Assembly: GCA_964599725.1 (NCBI GenBank)
Contig: CAZRGT010000016.1
Span: 34,351-98,350 of the forward strand
From: an uncultured Gemmatimonadaceae bacterium
GTDB lineage: Bacteria > Gemmatimonadota > Gemmatimonadetes > Gemmatimonadales > GWC2-71-9
Direction: 5' to 3'
DNA length: 64,000 nucleotides
Shown here piece after piece: positions 17,655 to 24,473 of this stretch. How positions within the stretch are numbered: the stretch's first letter is position 1; each line of letters starts with the position of its first letter. The translations under genes were made by a program, and so were the position numbers. The notes beneath the pieces were generated by a model. That model made no database searches. It was not told the DNA's origin and worked only from the letters and a program-made list of their open reading frames with translations.

Positions 17655-17682
17655 AATGCCTCCTTGATTTCTCATCTCGTAT

Positions 17683-17708
17683 GACGCAACCGCGCTTCCG
17701 ATCGTTGC
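17683..17708 (-). promoter_or_regulatory. ECF-sigma-type promoter for small protein
   Basis: GCAAC-N17-CGTC. Confidence 0.45.
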
Positions 17709-17752
17709 GGCAACGGTGTCCGAGACGCGTCAGGGCTATTAGCTTTGCTGCC

Positions 17753-18523
17753 GTGACCGGCCTCGCGCGATTCCGGGATCTCCTCACTCAGCTCATTCTC
17801 CGGGACCTGAAGTCCCGCTATAAGCAGACCTATTTCGGGGCGCTGTGGGTGTTCGGCCGCCCGCTGGTCGAGCTGGGCGTGTACGTGCTCGTGTTCGGGG
17901 CGTTTCTTCGTGCACCGTCGGACGGCGTGCCGTACCCGCTGTTCGCGTTCTCCGGTGTCGTGCTGTGGAGTTTCGTCTCCGGCGCCATCTCTCGCGGCGC
18001 CCGCAGCGTCCAAGGTGAGGGAGGCCTCGTCGCCCACGCACCGTTTCCCAAGGCGACGCTGCCCCTGGCGGCGATCGTAGGGGCGTTGCTCGATTCCCTC
18101 CTCGCCGCCGCCATGTTGGGCCTGCTGCTCGCCGTCCAACACGTCGTTCCGTCCCCGAGCGCCTGGCTGTTGCTGCCGATTGTCGCGATCCTCGGCATCA
18201 TGGTCACGGGGCTGGTGTTGATCGGCTCGGCGCTGAACGTCTTCTATCGCGACGTCGGACATCTGGTCGATCTCGGAGTGCGTGTCTGGCTGCTGCTCAC
18301 ACCGGTCGCTTATGCCCGCTCGGTGGTGCCCCCACAGTATCAGACGCTTTACAACCTCAATCCGCTCGTTTCGCTGTTCGACCTCGCCCGAGCCGCCCTG
18401 CTGGGCACGGGGGTGGTTCGTCCCGAGGCGATGTGGTACCCACTCGGGGTGGGGCTCGTGTTTCTCGCCGTCGGTGTGGTGGTGTTCCGCGCGGCCGAGC
18501 CGTATTTCGCCGAGTCGGTCTAG
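17753..18523 (+). CDS. ABC-2 permease, Wzm/TagG type
   Basis: RDLKSRYKQTYFGALW, FPKATLP, YRDVGHL, LNPL; about six TM segments; GTG start. Confidence 0.92.
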   Translation: MTGLARFRDLLTQLILRDLKSRYKQTYFGALWVFGRPLVELGVYVLVFGAFLRAPSDGVPYPLFAFSGVVLWSFVSGAISRGARSVQGEGGLVAHAPFPKATLPLAAIVGALLDSLLAAAMLGLLLAVQHVVPSPSAWLLLPIVAILGIMVTGLVLIGSALNVFYRDVGHLVDLGVRVWLLLTPVAYARSVVPPQYQTLYNLNPLVSLFDLARAALLGTGVVRPEAMWYPLGVGLVFLAVGVVVFRAAEPYFAESV

Positions 18524-18527
18524 GCTC

Positions 18528-19745
18528 ATGGCGATCACCGTATCGGGAGTCTGGAAGCGCTACCGGCTGCGGAGCGAGTCGCTCAAGGAGCTGGTGATCG
18601 GACTGCTGCCGCGCCGACGACGCGGCCCGCCGCCCCGGCCCAAGTCCCTGTGGGCGTTGTCGGACGTGTCGTTTCATGTGGAGCGCGGCTCGACCTTCGC
18701 CCTGGTGGGAGCCAACGGGTCGGGGAAGTCGACCATGCTCAAACTGATCGCCGCCATGATGAAGCCCACGCGCGGATCGATCCATGTGGACGGCCGGCTG
18801 TCCCTGCTCAGTTTTCTGGGCGGCTCCTTCCATGGCGACCTGACGGGGCGGGAGAACGTCTTCCTGGAAGGGGCGCTGCTCGGCCTCACACGGAAGGAGC
18901 TGCGCGCCAAGCTGGACGCCATTTTCGACTTCGCCGGCCTCGAGGAATTCACCGACGTGCCGGTGAAGTTCTACTCCTCGGGAATGGCGCTCCGGCTCGG
19001 GTTCGCGATCGCGGCGCACATCGAGCCAGAGGTGCTGCTGATCGACGAAGCGTTCGCCGTCGGCGACACGGCATTCCGCGACCGCTGCCTGGGGAAAATG
19101 CTGGACTTCAAGGCGGCGGGCACCACCATGGTTCTGGTGTCACACGAGCGGTACCTGGTCGAGCAGCTGTGCGATACCGCCGTGCTGCTCGACCACGGAC
19201 ACACCGTGGCGAACGGGCGTCCCGAGGAAGTGTTCGCGGCCTACGAGCGGGTCAACGAAGCGGCCGAAGCGGCGACGGACGAAGACGATCTCGAGGGCGA
19301 ACCGGTGCGCTCTCCGCTCCAGATCGAGCGGGTCGAGATCACGGGCGGTGAAGGCGAGGACGTGCCCCTGTTCCGACCCGACGACGCCCTCGTGGCGCGG
19401 GTGCACCTCCGGGCGCAGCGGGACATCTCCGGCGGATCCCTGGGGATCCAGGTCGCGCGCGAATGGCATGTCCTGCACGGGACGCGCTGCAACCGCCAGG
19501 GCATCGAGATCAACGCTCGAGCCGGCGAGCGACTCACACTCGAGATCGAGTACCGCCCGCTCTCGCTGGCGCGCGGGTCCTACGCGCTCCATGTCCTCGT
19601 GTACGAGCACCGACTCGCGGTGGAACCAGTGCTGGTCCTGAAGCGGGCGGCGCGCTTTCGGGTCACGCTCCCTGAGGCGGAGGGCGTGGGCCTCATCCGT
19701 CTCGCCCACACCTGGCGCCTGTTGAACGGCGGCGACGCGCCCTAG
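18528..19745 (+). CDS. ABC ATPase, Wzt/TagH type with C-terminal Wzt_C-like domain
   Basis: GANGSGKST, YSSGM signature, LLIDE, LVSH; about 160-aa C-terminal beta domain. Confidence 0.92.
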   Translation: MAITVSGVWKRYRLRSESLKELVIGLLPRRRRGPPPRPKSLWALSDVSFHVERGSTFALVGANGSGKSTMLKLIAAMMKPTRGSIHVDGRLSLLSFLGGSFHGDLTGRENVFLEGALLGLTRKELRAKLDAIFDFAGLEEFTDVPVKFYSSGMALRLGFAIAAHIEPEVLLIDEAFAVGDTAFRDRCLGKMLDFKAAGTTMVLVSHERYLVEQLCDTAVLLDHGHTVANGRPEEVFAAYERVNEAAEAATDEDDLEGEPVRSPLQIERVEITGGEGEDVPLFRPDDALVARVHLRAQRDISGGSLGIQVAREWHVLHGTRCNRQGIEINARAGERLTLEIEYRPLSLARGSYALHVLVYEHRLAVEPVLVLKRAARFRVTLPEAEGVGLIRLAHTWRLLNGGDAP

Positions 19746-20743
19746 GCGCCGGCACGGGCGCGCTCACTGGTCCACCACGCGAGCGCCTTCCTCAGTCCGC
19801 CGGACGGCTGCAAGTGCCGCAGCACCGCCAGGCGCAGCCCGAGCGCGCGCTCGAGATCGTACGGCGTCACGCGCCCAGCCAGAGCCACCGGTGGCTCCAC
19901 ACCCGCCAGCTGCGTGGCCGCTCCGAGCCACGCTCCCGCGGCTGCCCCGTCCACGATCTCTTTGGCATCCAGTCGGCGTGCGATCTCGGACCAGTCCACC
20001 GGTACACCGCTCGCCCAGATGACCGCCGCATCAAACAGCCGCACCAGTAGGAATGCATAATCGGGAATCAACAGGCTATGCGCCGTGGCGCTCCAGAACA
20101 ACTCCGTTGCCGACGGCACGCGAAACCGGATCCCCGAGCGTTCCACGTCGATCCCCGCATCGTGGTAACGCTGCCAAGCCACGCCCGGGTTCACTCCCTG
20201 AGCGTATGTGGTGTGGAGCTCGACGCCGACCCGGCGTTGACTCCACAGGGTGGGCAAATGGTGATGTTGCGGTCGCGGGGGCTTGGTTGGTGATGTCCGA
20301 TCATATCCCCGCCTCCGGAGGTCATGCCAAACCTCCCGGGCGTGGGCCAGCGGAACCAGAACATCAACGTCATTGGTGACGCGGGCGTCGGCGAACGGAT
20401 AGCGGTCCACGGCGAGCCGTCGCGCCACACCCTTCAAGAACACCGCCGGCATGTCGATCTCATGAAAGATCTCCGCCAATGCCTGCGCCTCCGCTTCGAT
20501 CAGCAGATTCCGAGCGGTCTCTTCACGCGCCTGCGCGGAGACCCACGCAGCCAGCTCCGGGTCGATTCGGTCCATGACCCCCAGTTGGCGGAGCCGTCGG
20601 TACAGCCAAATGGCACACCCCTCGAACGCCACTAGGCGCCTCATCCCTGTCCCCTCGGTGGTCCCCCACGCGGGGGCCAAGTGCTCAGGCGGGAGACCCC
20701 CGCGGAATCGGAGGGTATCGATCAGCAGCCGCGCCGAATTCAC
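19742..20743 (-). CDS. Nucleotidyltransferase family protein (NTP_transf_5-like, as found in lasso/RRE clusters)
   Basis: FLKGVA...Y...R...DVDVLV, HHLP...VELH. Confidence 0.85.
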   Translation of the reverse strand: MNSARLLIDTLRFRGGLPPEHLAPAWGTTEGTGMRRLVAFEGCAIWLYRRLRQLGVMDRIDPELAAWVSAQAREETARNLLIEAEAQALAEIFHEIDMPAVFLKGVARRLAVDRYPFADARVTNDVDVLVPLAHAREVWHDLRRRGYDRTSPTKPPRPQHHHLPTLWSQRRVGVELHTTYAQGVNPGVAWQRYHDAGIDVERSGIRFRVPSATELFWSATAHSLLIPDYAFLLVRLFDAAVIWASGVPVDWSEIARRLDAKEIVDGAAAGAWLGAATQLAGVEPPVALAGRVTPYDLERALGLRLAVLRHLQPSGGLRKALAWWTSERARAGA

Positions 20744-21174
20744 GCTTCGACGACGGCGGGGCGCGCCTCTGGAAACCGGGCGATGACGGTATGGCGTTGC
20801 GGGTGCTCGGGATGGGACTCCAGATAGGGCTCACCACCGCGGACCAGCCAGGCATGGGCCCCCAATGGCGACGGACCGGACTTGTGAACGCCAATCCAGA
20901 GCTCGACCGGGCGGCCGGCGCGACGCAGGAGATGATACAGGACGGCCGCGCGCTTGAGGCAGGTCCGGCGCCACGGATTGGGCAGGTTGCGGAGCAGGCG
21001 GTCCACCCACCGGGCCAGGGATGCGTCGTCCAGATCCTGAGCCGGGGGCCGGCTGCCGCGCCCGCCCAACCAGCCCGCCAGACGGGAGAAGGAAACGAGA
21101 TAGAGCAACGGTGGGACCACGGCCACCATGGCGGTGGCCCGCAGGCGCCACGTCAACGGCAGGCGCGCCGTCAC
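20740..21174 (-). CDS. Lasso-type leader peptidase (B2, transglutaminase-like)
   Basis: TCLKRA catalytic Cys, LWIGV, AHAW catalytic His; GTGA overlap. Confidence 0.9.
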   Translation of the reverse strand: MTARLPLTWRLRATAMVAVVPPLLYLVSFSRLAGWLGGRGSRPPAQDLDDASLARWVDRLLRNLPNPWRRTCLKRAAVLYHLLRRAGRPVELWIGVHKSGPSPLGAHAWLVRGGEPYLESHPEHPQRHTVIARFPEARPAVVEA

Positions 21175-21443
21175 GCGCCCTCGACCACCAGCAGGTCTGC
21201 CGTGCGACACGTGTCGAGGAATTGCCGCACGCTGGCTTCTGCCTGCTCCGGCGTCACCTCGTATTGCTCCACGAGCAAGCGCACCAGCTCGTCCACGGAT
21301 CGCGGCGCTTCGAGCGCCTGCAACAGGATCAGGCCGCTCTCGGTCACGGAAAAATAGCGGCGCGTTCCCAGATGCAGCACGACCCCGTCGCCTTCGACGT
21401 CGGCGAGGCGCAAGTCCGGATGTCGGATGTAACGTTGGCTCAT
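21171..21443 (-). CDS. RiPP recognition element (PqqD/B1 family)
   Basis: VEGDGVVLHLGTRRYFSVTESGLILLQAL...VEQYEVTPEQAEASVRQFL, 90 aa. Confidence 0.92.
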   Translation of the reverse strand: MSQRYIRHPDLRLADVEGDGVVLHLGTRRYFSVTESGLILLQALEAPRSVDELVRLLVEQYEVTPEQAEASVRQFLDTCRTADLLVVEGA

Positions 21444-22357
21444 GTGACGAGCTCGATCAGACGGTTCGGTCGGGAGAACAAGTCGCGCCCCAACGTAACC
21501 CGGTAGCAACGCGCCTGCCCGGTCAGTCGTGTCAGCACGTTCAGGTGGTCCTGCGCCAGGTCGGGCTCGAGCATCACCCATGCGGACCACCGCACCAGCT
21601 CCGCCACCGCCCCCCGCCGATCCAGGGGCTTGGCGCTGGTCTTGGCGTTTCCCACGGCCGTGAAAATAACGACCTCCGGGTCGACGAGGGGGGTCCAGAC
21701 ACCCCCCAGATCCTCCGGCCGGTATCCGGTCTTCCCCCGATCGGGGAGGGATACCCCCCCGGCTCGGGCGAGTAGCCCCAGGCCGCCATCGCGCAGGGCG
21801 ATGGGCGCGCGACAGGTGTGCACGATGATGCGATCGCCGCGGCGCTCGAGGAACGCCGCGTCATCTGTTCCTACGCGCCAACCCGACGCCGCCAACAGGG
21901 CGGCGGTCGTGGACTTTCCCGCATGCGCGTTGCCGGCCACGAGCCAGCCACGGCCCTGCGGGTCAATCGCCGTCGCCGCGTGCAGGTGATACCAGCCCAC
22001 CCGCCGCAGCAAGACGATCAGGACCACCATCAGGAAGGTGCGGGTACAGAGCTCGAGCTTTTCAACCGCGGCCGGGGAAAGACGGATCGACGCCGTAGCA
22101 GCATCGCCAGGAACTTCGGCGATCGCGGGGGCTTCCTCCCACAACACGCGGAGGCCCCGACCTCCGGGGCCTCGCGCGAAGCGCACCTGGGGTTGCTCGA
22201 AAACGACCTCCGTCAGCGCCGGGATCGCGGCGGCCGAGACCGAGACGTCCAGAACCAGGCCGGGTGGCGCCGCGAGGGATAACCTCGCAAGCCATCCCTC
22301 GAGGACCGCCTTGACGGAGACGTCGCTGCATCGAATCTCGATGGCGGGGGCAGACAT
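21440..22357 (-). CDS. HPr kinase-related P-loop kinase
   Basis: HLHAA, GNAHAGKSTT Walker A, GTDD acidic pair. Confidence 0.85.
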   Translation of the reverse strand: MSAPAIEIRCSDVSVKAVLEGWLARLSLAAPPGLVLDVSVSAAAIPALTEVVFEQPQVRFARGPGGRGLRVLWEEAPAIAEVPGDAATASIRLSPAAVEKLELCTRTFLMVVLIVLLRRVGWYHLHAATAIDPQGRGWLVAGNAHAGKSTTAALLAASGWRVGTDDAAFLERRGDRIIVHTCRAPIALRDGGLGLLARAGGVSLPDRGKTGYRPEDLGGVWTPLVDPEVVIFTAVGNAKTSAKPLDRRGAVAELVRWSAWVMLEPDLAQDHLNVLTRLTGQARCYRVTLGRDLFSRPNRLIELVT

Positions 22358-22451
22358 GGCTCAAAAAAGCCTGCTCAAAGCGCCAAACGCCAGGCCGCGG
22401 GAAGCGACCTGGCGCATGGAGGTAGAGACCCTACAGGACTAGGAGCTGCGA

Positions 22452-22477
22452 CCGCCGTGACGGAAACCGCGAGGCGG
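22452..22477 (-). other. Stem-loop just 3' of precursor gene
   Basis: CCGCC...CGG-AAA-CCG...GGCGG imperfect hairpin 8 nt past the stop; no U-tract. Confidence 0.45.
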
Positions 22478-22485
22478 AACAGGCA

Positions 22486-22653
22486 TCACGCCGAGCGACC
22501 GCCCTGCTGCGTGCGGCTGGCCAAGTTGCCCTGGCTGTTGGTCGAGTTGCCGCGCGTCGGCTGGCCGAGCGACACGAGCGTCACGCCTTCCAGCGACGCC
22601 TCTTCTGTCAGCTTCGGGGCCACGAAGGGTTTGCGCGTTGGTTTCTGCTCCAC
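22486..22653 (-). CDS. RiPP precursor peptide, 55 aa, lasso-type leader
   Basis: GGGAGG RBS 7 nt before GTG; MEQKPTRKPFVAPKLTEEASLEGVTL-VSLGQPTRGNSTNSQGNLASRTQQGGRSA; FxxPxL and penultimate Thr; first gene of RRE/B2 operon. Confidence 0.85.
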   Translation of the reverse strand: MEQKPTRKPFVAPKLTEEASLEGVTLVSLGQPTRGNSTNSQGNLASRTQQGGRSA

Positions 22654-22691
22654 GATGAGCCTCCCTTTTCCGGTGAATGTCGCCGCTGGGT

Positions 22692-22719
22692 ACACTACGC
22701 CGTCGCAGTGCTATAGCAA
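22692..22719 (-). promoter_or_regulatory. Promoter for precursor operon
   Basis: TTGCTA-N16-TAGTGT; -35 overlaps palindrome TGCTATAGCA; a weak sigma54-like GG-N10-GC overlaps the same site. Confidence 0.45.
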
Positions 22720-22867
22720 GTCTCACGCCCCTGTAACCCTGCATCTGGCGCCCACTCTAACATATTGCAATACAACTGCTTACCTGGGCTGGCATCGATC
22801 GATGGAGTCGCCTTCGGAGTCTGCTCGCCACAAACTCCCCCACGCCTTGTAGCGAGACTACCACGGT

Positions 22868-23212
22868 CTAACGCGGCAAAGTGAGCCAGCCAGCCACGAG
22901 TCCTCCAACTTGAGCGACGATCGCGATGGGCAAGGACAACCGTCGCGCGCTGGCATGCTCAGACTCGATGACCAAGAAGGTGACGAGGAGCGCCGCAAAG
23001 AAGGGCCAATTGGCCTGCAGATGGAAAAAATGAAGGATGCCGTCCCCGGTCCAAGCGGCGGCGAAGCCACCAGCGAGCGAACCCAACAGCATGGCAACCT
23101 GTTTGGCACGGCGAAACGGTAGCGCGCCGAGCGGCAGGAACACCACGAGGCCGACCAGCGCAGCCAGGACCGCGCAAGCGAATCCAACCGCATATCCGAG
23201 GACTGTCTTCAT
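22868..23212 (-). CDS. Small integral membrane hypothetical protein (about 4 TM)
   Basis: MKTVLGYAVGFACAVLAALVGLVVF...; AGAGG RBS right after tRNA. Confidence 0.7.
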   Translation of the reverse strand: MKTVLGYAVGFACAVLAALVGLVVFLPLGALPFRRAKQVAMLLGSLAGGFAAAWTGDGILHFFHLQANWPFFAALLVTFLVIESEHASARRLSLPIAIVAQVGGLVAGWLTLPR

Positions 23213-23224
23213 AGGCCTCTTACG

Positions 23225-23308
23225 TGCCCGGGGCAGGACTCGAACCTGCATGGGGTTGCCCCCAAGGGATTTTAAGTCCCTTGCGTCTACCGATTTCGCC
23301 ACCCGGGC
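23225..23308 (-). tRNA. tRNA-Leu (anticodon TAA), CCA not encoded
   Basis: GCCCGGG acceptor stem, TGGCGAAATCGGTAGACGC D-arm, GGGA-CTTAAAA-TCCC anticodon arm, long variable arm, GTTCGAGTC T-loop. Confidence 0.96.
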
Positions 23309-23318
23309 CGGTTCAATG

Positions 23319-24473
23319 TTATATCACGCGCTCACGCCGCGCGCCCGGACCCGGGCGGACCACACTCATGGCGGGCTCGCGACCATAGGCCCGAGCAAAC
23401 GCCCGCCGGATCGCCGCGGCAATCGCACGCTCGCGCCGCTCGGTACCCTCCGCCGGCCCCACCACGATGAGCCCTGCCCCTCCCCATCCGGCGCCGGTCA
23501 GCCGGGCTCCCCAGGCCCCGGCGCGCCGTGCGGCCCGCACCGCGAGATCGAGCTCCGGCGCACTGCATTCGAACCAGCGGCGACACGACTCGTGTGAGGC
23601 ATCCACCAGCCGGCCAAACGCCCGCAAGTGTCCACGCGCCAGGAGGGCGGCAGCCGCCCGGGTTCGCCCCGTCTCCGTCACGACATGCATGGCCCGGGAC
23701 CGCAGCGGATTCGCCAGCAGCCGCCGCAACGCCAGAACCCGCCGGAGCGGCCAGTCGGCGAGGTTCGTCAGACCAGGCGTCGAGCGCGCCAAGGTGGCCA
23801 GCGCAGCCTCGCATTCCGCTCGCCGCTCGTTGTAGGCGCTCGCCGCGAGATCGTGGCGCGCCCCCGTGTCCACGAGCAACAACCGCGCCCGCACGGGGAT
23901 GTGCCGGTATCGCCCCGTCGCGCATTCGATCAATAAGGCATGGCCGGCGCGAGCGCGTACGGCAATGGTTTGATCCATGATGCCGCAGCGCACACCCACG
24001 TGCTCGTGCTCGGCCCGATGCGCCACGGTCACCAACTCAAAAGGCGTCAGGGCGACGCCCGCGAGGCCTGCGAGTGCGCGTCCGGCAGCCACGGCAAGCG
24101 CCGCCGAGGACGCAAGACCCGCGCCCGCCGGGACCGCACTGGCCACCGCGAGACGCGCGCCGTCCGGTGCCGCGTCCCGCCCGGCTAGCTCCCGCATGAC
24201 GCCCACGATGTACCCGGCCCACCCGGCGGGAAGCGGGCCATCCCAGCGGACCCGTACCGGGAGGTCATCCCGTGACGAAACGAGGTCAAGCCAGCCCGGT
24301 TCGCCGGGACCCACGACGACGGTCGTCCGTTCCATCGTGGCGAACGGCAGAACGGGACCCCCGTTGTAGTCGGTGTGATCACCGATCAGGTTCACGCGTC
24401 CGGGCGCACTCGCCGCGTGCGTCGGCGCACTCCCGAACGCCGTGCGGAATAGCGCTATCGCCTGTGCTCGCAT
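23319..24473 (-). CDS. galK: Galactokinase
   Basis: APGRVNLIGDHTDYNGG, GAGLASSAA, CGIMDQ, GARLTGAGWGG. Confidence 0.92.
   Translation of the reverse strand: MRAQAIALFRTAFGSAPTHAASAPGRVNLIGDHTDYNGGPVLPFATMERTTVVVGPGEPGWLDLVSSRDDLPVRVRWDGPLPAGWAGYIVGVMRELAGRDAAPDGARLAVASAVPAGAGLASSAALAVAAGRALAGLAGVALTPFELVTVAHRAEHEHVGVRCGIMDQTIAVRARAGHALLIECATGRYRHIPVRARLLLVDTGARHDLAASAYNERRAECEAALATLARSTPGLTNLADWPLRRVLALRRLLANPLRSRAMHVVTETGRTRAAAALLARGHLRAFGRLVDASHESCRRWFECSAPELDLAVRAARRAGAWGARLTGAGWGGAGLIVVGPAEGTERRERAIAAAIRRAFARAYGREPAMSVVRPGPGARRERVI

Follow-up and report, generated by a model that had tools for sequence, protein, structure and literature searches.

A cyclase-less, B2-dependent RiPP operon of Gemmatimonadota that probably makes linear phosphorylated peptides with lasso-type machinery

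What can the machinery of lasso peptide biosynthesis make when the enzyme that closes the lasso ring is missing? This question is raised by a cassette of five co-oriented genes that we identified in a 64,000-nucleotide stretch of DNA (the window) from an uncultured Gemmatimonadaceae bacterium (contig CAZRGT010000016.1, positions 34,351 to 98,350), a soil member of Gemmatimonadota. The cassette occupies positions 19742-22653 of the minus strand and encodes, in this order, a precursor peptide, a HprK-like kinase, a discrete RiPP recognition element (RRE), a B2 leader peptidase and a nucleotidyltransferase (NTase)-fold enzyme. Judging from sequence comparisons and from analogy with characterized systems, it is probably a functional operon for a peptide made by ribosomes and altered after translation (RiPP) that descends from lasso machinery, works without a cyclase and represents a B2-dependent Gemmatimonadota counterpart of what are known in Bacillota as Linear Polyphosphorylated Peptides (LPPs). 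The five genes are as follows.

22486..22653, minus strand: precursor gene (55 aa), with a GTG start and a GGGAGG ribosome-binding site
21440..22357, minus strand: HprK-like P-loop peptide kinase (305 aa; weak match to Pfam ScmC, PF27840)
21171..21443, minus strand: discrete RRE of the PqqD/B1 type (90 aa; PF05402)
20740..21174, minus strand: lasso-type B2 leader peptidase, a Cys protease with a transglutaminase fold (144 aa; NF033537)
19742..20743, minus strand: NTP_transf_5 NTase-fold enzyme (333 aa; PF14907; grouped with PsmN/LppN by annotation)

The original prediction had described five co-oriented genes, the last four of which were coupled by 4-bp overlaps. All five minus-strand open reading frames (ORFs) were recovered with the same boundaries, and the three 4-bp overlaps could be read directly: ATGA between the kinase and RRE genes (21443-21440), GTGA between the RRE and B2 genes (21174-21171) and GTGA between the B2 and NTase genes (20743-20740).

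The precursor consists of a 26-aa lasso-type leader, MEQKPTRKPFVAPKLTEEASLEGVTL, and a 29-aa core, VSLGQPTRGNSTNSQGNLASRTQQGGRSA, which contains neither Asp nor Glu. Its key residues are M1...F10-V-A-P13-K-L15...T25-L26, followed by V27-S28 after the predicted cleavage site, and the sequence reads just as first described. The GGGAGG ribosome-binding site is located 6-7 nt before the GTG codon, and the same 55-aa precursor was called as a gene on an independent 7-kb Logan contig from the same organism. A hidden Markov model of the leader detected 55 homologous precursors in 39 loci, with 1-3 precursors per locus. Position -17 was aromatic in all 55 (Phe in 52 and Tyr in 3), position -12 was Leu, Val or Ile in all 55, Pro-14 was present in 54, and Leu-6, Thr-2 and Leu-1 were each present in every sequence. 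The leader pattern of lasso clusters, in which Y/W-x-x-P-x-L spans -17 to -12 and Thr occupies -2, was therefore found in exact lasso register.

By comparison with these leaders, the cores are hypervariable and range from 6 to 40 aa, with 10 of the 53 measuring just 6-9 aa (for example, VSPPPV, QSPGPT and LSNGGQPT). No Asp/Glu acceptor at core positions 7-9, as needed in a lasso peptide, is present in the window core, and 34 of the 53 cores contain no Asp or Glu at all. Because of this lack of acidic residues and the shortness of the 10 smallest cores, most cores are predicted to be unable to form a lasso macrolactam. The single conserved core feature is Ser or Thr at position 2 (49/53), and Gly-Gly usually comes next. 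Of the 53 cores, 28 end in Ser or Thr, and the window core ends in Ala. Core tails are Gly-rich with His/Gly, cationic or acidic. Several cores in loci L009-L011, L031 and L036 end in long His-Gly repeats, such as RRGHGHGHGHGHSS, a feature of their sequences that hints at metal binding.

The RRE and B2 proteins are of lasso type. The RRE matched PqqD (PF05402) with 55 bits, and its nearest solved structures were the paeninodin-type lasso RRE PbaB1 (9x90, E 1.6e-6) and TbiB1. B2 matched Transglut_core3 (PF13471, 66 bits) and the NCBIfam model lasso_biosyn_B2 (NF033537, 68 bits against a cut-off of 33). Thus, both the B1-type RRE and the B2 Cys protease of lasso clusters are present. C72 and H107 of B2 were invariant in all 43 sequences, and E119, which is aligned with an Asp presumed to be catalytic in the lasso B2 of an acidobacterium, was conserved in 42 of them. 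We also considered a role of B2 as a cross-linking transglutaminase and rejected it, as Gln and Lys are both absent from short cores like VSPPPV.

The NTase matched NTP_transf_5 (PF14907) with 79 bits against a cut-off of 31 and contained the hG-x...DxD motif of this family; K104, G105, D125, D127 and E175 were invariant. Its AlphaFold2 model had a mean confidence (pLDDT) of 93, and the closest folds, all with weak E-values, were MenT, ANT(2'')-Ia, LnuA and FKRP, in agreement with the fold likeness reported for PsmN (PMC6993621). PsmN is the sole transferase of its type with demonstrated activity: it is required for the addition of a hexose to phosphoserine, and its DxD motif is essential, the D134A/D136A mutant being inactive (PMC6993621). 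We also found a 511-aa protein on Logan contigs (P0233) in which an N-terminal B2 domain and a C-terminal NTP_transf_5 domain are fused in a single ORF, a gene structure suggesting that the two enzymes act in one pathway.

Assignment of the kinase was less direct. It scored weakly with Hpr_kinase_C (PF07475, 16.9 bits against a cut-off of 33.3), with TIGR00679 (16.1 vs 240 bits) and likewise with HprK_rel_A and ScmC. A sequence search of PDB gave sub-threshold HprK matches, and the profile matched HprK at E 0.005. When kinases from Gemmatimonadota were aligned by hhalign with those of cyclase-containing lasso clusters, the probability was 99% (E 7.6e-18, 227 columns). The AlphaFold2 model (pLDDT 92) returned PEPCK and HprK/P in Foldseek with a probability of 1.0, and the sequence carries the His...GxxxxGKS...DD motif expected of this P-loop fold. 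H126, G142, K148, S149, D165 and D166 were invariant, and by motif spacing and local alignment these residues match those validated by mutagenesis in BsfK. The window protein is thus an HprK-like P-loop kinase by modeled fold and motif that belongs to no curated family by score.

Homologs of the kinase were numerous. We found approximately 285 relatives with 52-100% identity, and the few that were organism-named belonged to metagenome-assembled genomes (MAGs) of Gemmatimonadales; an exhaustive profile search yielded 43 cluster representatives at E <= 1e-30 and 1305 at E <= 1e-10. In a scan of one genome per species, 48 other Gemmatimonadota loci, including one from a Longimicrobiales genome, carried the cassette with 44-94% kinase identity. 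The order precursor, kinase, RRE, B2 and NTase was the same wherever the contig permitted this to be seen, and such recurrence is far beyond chance. Two partial cassettes were also observed. In L027:1825-6747 (Gemmatimonadales), kinase and NTase genes are followed by two GT4-like ORFs (assigned by eye), with a tRNA upstream and no RRE, B2 or precursor. In L032:2465-3711, Wzm/Wzt lie upstream of a kinase and an RRE, after which comes a tRNA-like sequence; this locus is a second copy in MAG SMAG_U2494, which also contains a full cassette (L023).

The original prediction stated that the block contains no cyclase, and the wider search bore this out. The SGGxDS PP-loop motif was absent from all six frames of the 64-kb window, and tblastn with six lasso cyclases, run against the window plus 622 kb from related loci, gave no match. 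The 48 Gemmatimonadota loci likewise contained no PP-loop ORF within 10 kb, except for a GuaA-like gene in two of them, and the window and these loci with their 10-kb flanks were devoid of an Asn-synthetase-like cyclase. As a positive control, 11 of 17 distant outgroup loci showed a PP-loop ORF of 376-715 aa, mostly together with RRE and/or B2; one of these was confirmed as an Asn_synthase plus GATase protein encoded between B2 and the kinase, next to an RRE. Distant kinase relatives of Acidobacteriota, Micromonospora and Vulcanimicrobiota also adjoin a cyclase. The method therefore detects cyclases where they are present.

Comparisons with the closest locus gave ratios of nonsynonymous to synonymous substitution rates (dN/dS) of 0.06 for the RRE, 0.11 for both the kinase and the NTase, and 0.23 for B2. 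The ratio was <= 0.4 in all pairs tested, with dS saturated in distant pairs, and all four enzymes were intact in at least 40 species-level genomes. Because dN/dS was as low as 0.06-0.23 and catalytic residues were kept, the cassette appears to be functional and under purifying selection rather than decayed.

The following pathway, each step of which is inferred from homology and comparative data, is proposed on the precedents of LppK, BsfK and PsmN. The discrete RRE would bind the 55-aa precursor via its F-x-x-P-x-L leader and present it to the HprK-like kinase, which would phosphorylate core Ser2 (precursor Ser28), possibly several times. B2, with a putative Cys72-His107-Glu119 triad, would cut after Thr25-Leu26 and free the linear 29-aa core. 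The NTP_transf_5 enzyme might then decorate the phosphate; the group added could be a hexose, as the PsmN precedent would suggest, or a nucleotide. Nucleotidylation had been suggested originally; the precedent favors a hexose instead, and we retain the nucleotide as an alternative. Finally, a Wzm/Wzt ABC-2 exporter may export the product in this genome and in many relatives. By analogy with characterized enzymes, the products are most likely short linear phosphorylated peptides, and core Ser2 rather than a C-terminal Ser is likely to be the phosphorylation site: BsfK phosphorylates core Ser3 and is stimulated by RRE/B1 (PMC10368454), and LppK polyphosphorylates core Ser3 of a linear peptide whose cluster has an RRE and an NTase and no cyclase (PMC13381572).

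The closest known match to the cassette is provided by LPP clusters (Popov et al., Nat Commun 2026; PMC13381572). In these clusters, which have no cyclase, genes for a SipW-like leader peptidase and an MsbA-like pump accompany those for an HprK-like kinase, a discrete RRE and an NTP transferase. LPPs were described as confined to Bacillota (PMC13381572). Two earlier expectations are superseded by these clusters: that HPr-like kinases and NTP_transf_5 proteins always occur alongside a cyclase, which is outdated by the cyclase-less loci of Bacillota (PMC13381572), and that the proposed product belongs to no characterized class, since the concept was described as LPP in 2026 (PMC13381572). The window system shares with LPPs the lack of a cyclase, the HprK-like kinase, the discrete RRE and the NTP transferase (LppK and LppN being compared by description). 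Both have a lasso-like leader with an aromatic-x-x-P motif, a conserved Ser 2-3 residues past the cleavage site, 1-3 precursors with conserved leaders and variable cores, and polysaccharide-related neighbors. The leader motifs, YxxPxVLxHQxIxFETxxS in LPPs and FVxPxLxEEASLxxVTLxS in the window family, share the spacing of an aromatic residue at 1, Pro at 4, hydrophobic residues at 6 and 12, Thr at 16 and Ser at 19, whereas other residues differ and the aromatic residue is Phe in the window and Tyr in LPPs.

Other features separate the two. The only peptidase of the window operon is a lasso B2, in contrast to the SipW-like archaeal-type signal peptidase I of LPPs, and no SipW-like protein was found in the operon. 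It also lacks an MsbA-like exporter, having instead a Wzm/Wzt pair that is often adjacent in this family. The phyla differ as well, Gemmatimonadota versus Bacillota. When the window RRE was searched against PDB, LppB (9x8z) was not among the matches at E <= 1, whereas PbaB1 and TbiB1 were; because the RRE matches these lasso proteins and not LppB, its sequence suggests that the Gemmatimonadota system arose independently of LPP from lasso machinery. In summary, the cassette does not qualify as a lasso cluster, because neither a cyclase, in the 64-kb window and the related loci searched, nor an acceptor residue was found. It would work like LPP and yet is no member of the LPP family as defined, because its peptidase is B2 and an MsbA-like pump is missing from the operon. 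The literature searched yielded no account of a version that depends on B2 or comes from Gemmatimonadota. What is new is the use of B2 and the phylum, whereas the peptide class itself was published in 2026 and is not an unknown one. Apart from the points corrected above, the original reading is borne out in every part open to in silico testing.

Several cyclase-containing systems are also related. The Bsf cluster of Bradymonas sediminis has B1, B2 and an HprK-like kinase as in the window (PMC10368454). Its kinase acts on an N-proximal core Ser, is stimulated by B1 (PMC10368454) and has the catalytic His/Gly/Lys/Ser/Asp-Asp motif in common with the window kinase, and an N (NTase) gene is present in several related Bradymonadales clusters (PMC10368454). 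However, Bsf has a cyclase and an Asp8 acceptor, its penultimate leader residue is Ile rather than Thr (PMC10368454), and identity with the window proteins is low (24% over 123 aa for the kinase and 27% for the RRE). Paeninodin and pseudomycoidin clusters (PadeK, PsmK, PsmN) have the same combination of kinase, NTP_transf_5, B1 and B2, and the DxD motif of PsmN is retained in the window NTase; unlike the window system, they have a cyclase, C-terminal Ser phosphorylation and WxxP leaders and are from Bacillota. Two computationally defined NCBIfam systems, HPr-rel-A (TIGR04352/TIGR04353) and SynChlorMet (ScmC/ScmD), also combine a PqqD-type chaperone with an HprK-like protein. With the models of these systems, the window kinase and RRE scored far below the curated cut-offs (27 vs 200, 22.5 vs 35 and 20.8 vs 125), the scores for HPr-rel-A being 27.3 vs 200 with HprK_rel_A and 22.5 vs 35 with PqqD_rel_X. 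Our literature search found no papers on HprK-related kinase, HPr-rel-A or SynChlorMet, and RRE-Finder and the 2025 RRE survey make no mention of kinase or NTase contexts.

Additional kinase-containing loci were found outside this family. Another cyclase-less cassette (L069:6147-12551, GCA_028277945.1, a 345-kb contig; also L070) contains an HprK-like kinase, a B2-like protease, a 58-aa precursor, a radical SAM protein, PqqD and a major facilitator superfamily transporter. In its precursor, a YQKPQL leader in which position -2 is Val precedes a core that starts with GFSG and lacks Asp/Glu, and no Asn_synthase was recorded within 8 kb. On a short contig, L068:991-4077, an NTP_transf_5 gene on the minus strand is accompanied by B2, a 60-aa ORF and a kinase; in the 60-aa ORF, a canonical FVEPKL...T-G leader precedes a 7-aa non-acidic core (FFGAFSP), and from these sequences L068 is a candidate for a further B2-type linear system. 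Three loci (L050:9442-11835, L062:9596-13666 and L071:342-2895) have the kinase and NTP_transf_5 without a cyclase, the last lying on a 3-kb contig that is too short to judge; PqqD is also present in L050 and L071, and an MsbA-like ABC transporter in L062. No B2 was detected by tblastn in L050 (a delta-proteobacterium MAG) or L062 (a cyanobacterium MAG), including 10-kb flanks on both sides. Finally, an Acidobacteriota MAG (L052:5445-13301) contains a canonical cluster of the phosphorylated-lasso type, with RRE, B2, cyclase and kinase. Genes for a TPR/CBM protein, a Wzy_C O-antigen ligase and a Wzt-like ABC ATPase border it, so that a kinase-bearing RiPP cluster lies beside envelope-glycan genes here too.

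The region between the precursor and kinase genes of the window contains one further conserved element.

22387..22416, minus strand: conserved GC-rich hairpin, CGCCAGG...CCTGGCG (CGCGCCAGG...CCTGGCGCG), followed by a T-rich tail, between the precursor stop and the kinase start

The fold of this intergenic region had a z-score of -3.7 against dinucleotide-preserving shuffles, and the corresponding regions were strongly structured in most of the 39 loci tested. An alignment of the hairpin from 29 loci contained 15 base pairs, 13 of which showed compensatory changes. The hairpin, which is present in most Gemmatimonadota loci examined, occurs once in the window and matched no Rfam family; tRNA-Leu was the only match in the Rfam scan. 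It is probably a partial terminator or an mRNA-stabilizing element, which would probably keep precursor mRNA in excess of enzyme mRNA. Consensus scans of positions 19500-23400, uninformative for this high-GC phylum, revealed no promoter and a single weak terminator-like site, located within the kinase gene.

The cassette is bordered by the following features.

17681-18523, plus strand: Wzm, an ABC-2 exporter (ABC2_membrane)
18528-19745, plus strand: Wzt (ABC_tran + Wzt_C), convergent on the NTase gene
22868-23209, minus strand: predicted membrane protein of about 113 aa without a family match, just upstream of the precursor gene
23224-23308, minus strand: tRNA-Leu(TAA), beyond the membrane protein gene

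The stop codons of the Wzt and NTase genes overlap on opposite strands on the palindrome CTAG (19742-19745). Of 39 informative loci, 23 have Wzt beside the NTase gene, some of them divergent loci whose other flanks are different, and by neighborhood clustering Wzm/Wzt were the only flanking genes that recurred across clades. They are a plausible candidate for the exporter of the product. The membrane protein was kept only in the closer clade (11 loci). Other neighbors in the window encode a Ser/Thr kinase, a histidine kinase plus receiver protein, DUF4097, tRNA-Leu, galK, FadL, a GDSL lipase and RecN. Neighborhood clustering led us to reject galK, FadL, DUF4097, the Ser/Thr kinase and the two-component genes as members of the system, as they reflect the local synteny of one clade; SelA-like, PurN-like and PurH-like ORFs (assigned by eye) were rejected as local synteny of another clade.

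How do other explanations compare with a functional linear phosphopeptide operon? The lasso character of the RRE, B2 and leader, together with the lack of a cyclase in the window, would also be expected of a lasso cluster that lost its cyclase and is heading to pseudogenization. We consider such decay most improbable, as four enzymes that are intact in so many species, with their low dN/dS and retained catalytic residues, and a leader that is conserved while cores diversify all speak against it. The scenario that would have undone the original prediction, in which every homologous locus has a cyclase together with acidic cores, is excluded, since 48 of 48 loci are cyclase-less within 10 kb and 34 of 53 cores are non-acidic. 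Alternatively, a cyclase encoded elsewhere in the genome could close the ring. Lasso biosynthetic gene clusters have been reported in some marine Gemmatimonadota MAGs (29 MAGs; PMC11316326), 9 of 53 cores do have Asp/Glu at positions 7-9, and the cyclase search in this genome covered the 64-kb window; yet the window core and the 34 non-acidic cores offer no acceptor, the 10 cores of 6-9 aa are too short for a ring plus tail, and none of the 48 loci has a cyclase within 10 kb, which makes a split cluster very improbable as well.

It could also be argued that the kinase and NTase act on a non-peptide substrate, such as a glycan handled by Wzm/Wzt, with the peptide, RRE and B2 forming a separate or regulatory module. 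The partial cassette in which kinase and NTase stand beside two glycosyltransferase-like ORFs (by eye) without RRE, B2 or precursor, the adjacency of Wzm/Wzt in 23 of 39 loci and the location of related clusters of other phyla in polysaccharide loci are consistent with this idea, which we nevertheless regard as quite improbable: 4-bp overlaps tie kinase, RRE, B2 and NTase in order, the homologous kinases act on peptides and are stimulated by their RRE, a B2-NTase fusion exists, and Ser/Thr is conserved at core position 2. A narrower question is whether the pathway is as proposed and the kinase targets the C-terminal Ser, as in paeninodin. PadeK, ThcoK and PsmK modify a C-terminal Ser and 28 of 53 cores end in Ser/Thr, but the window core ends in Ala, 25 of 53 cores have no terminal Ser/Thr whereas 49 have Ser/Thr at position 2, and both BsfK and LppK act on an N-proximal Ser3, so we think this variant unlikely. 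As for the preferred reading, a linear phosphopeptide made by lasso-derived enzymes, some observations weigh against it: the kinase falls below all curated family thresholds, its assignment coming from profile-profile and fold comparison; position 2 is not Ser/Thr in 4 of 53 cores; partial cassettes exist with kinase and NTase but no RRE or B2 (L027) or with kinase and RRE only (L032); Wzm/Wzt are missing from 16 of 39 informative loci; and LppN was inactive in a heterologous host (PMC13381572).

A bolder interpretation, which we offer as speculation and consider rather unlikely, is that the system represents a separate RiPP class, in which lasso-type B1/B2, together with the kinase and an NTase-fold phosphotransferase, would yield peptides of very small size (6 aa in some cases). 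A phosphodiester would connect their N-proximal phosphoserine with a sugar, a nucleotide or a lipid-linked glycan, and an O-antigen-type Wzm/Wzt exporter would receive the product. Under this view, the related kinase cassettes without a cyclase, namely those of a delta-proteobacterium MAG, a cyanobacterium MAG and several further loci, one of them with a radical SAM enzyme, would belong as branches to a large unrecognized superfamily of lasso-derived linear phosphopeptides. If true, this would link ribosomal peptide and cell-envelope glycan biosynthesis.

For the preferred reading, the findings have several implications. Lasso B1 and B2, which are treated as lasso markers, would be kept under selection phylum-wide for a product that cannot be a lasso, and genome-mining rules based on B2/RRE would therefore mislabel or miss such loci. 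Cores of down to six residues with one conserved Ser would provide simple substrates for studying the widespread NTP_transf_5 enzymes. The idea of linear phosphopeptides is extended past Bacillota, and the data suggest that such peptides arose more than once from lasso machinery.

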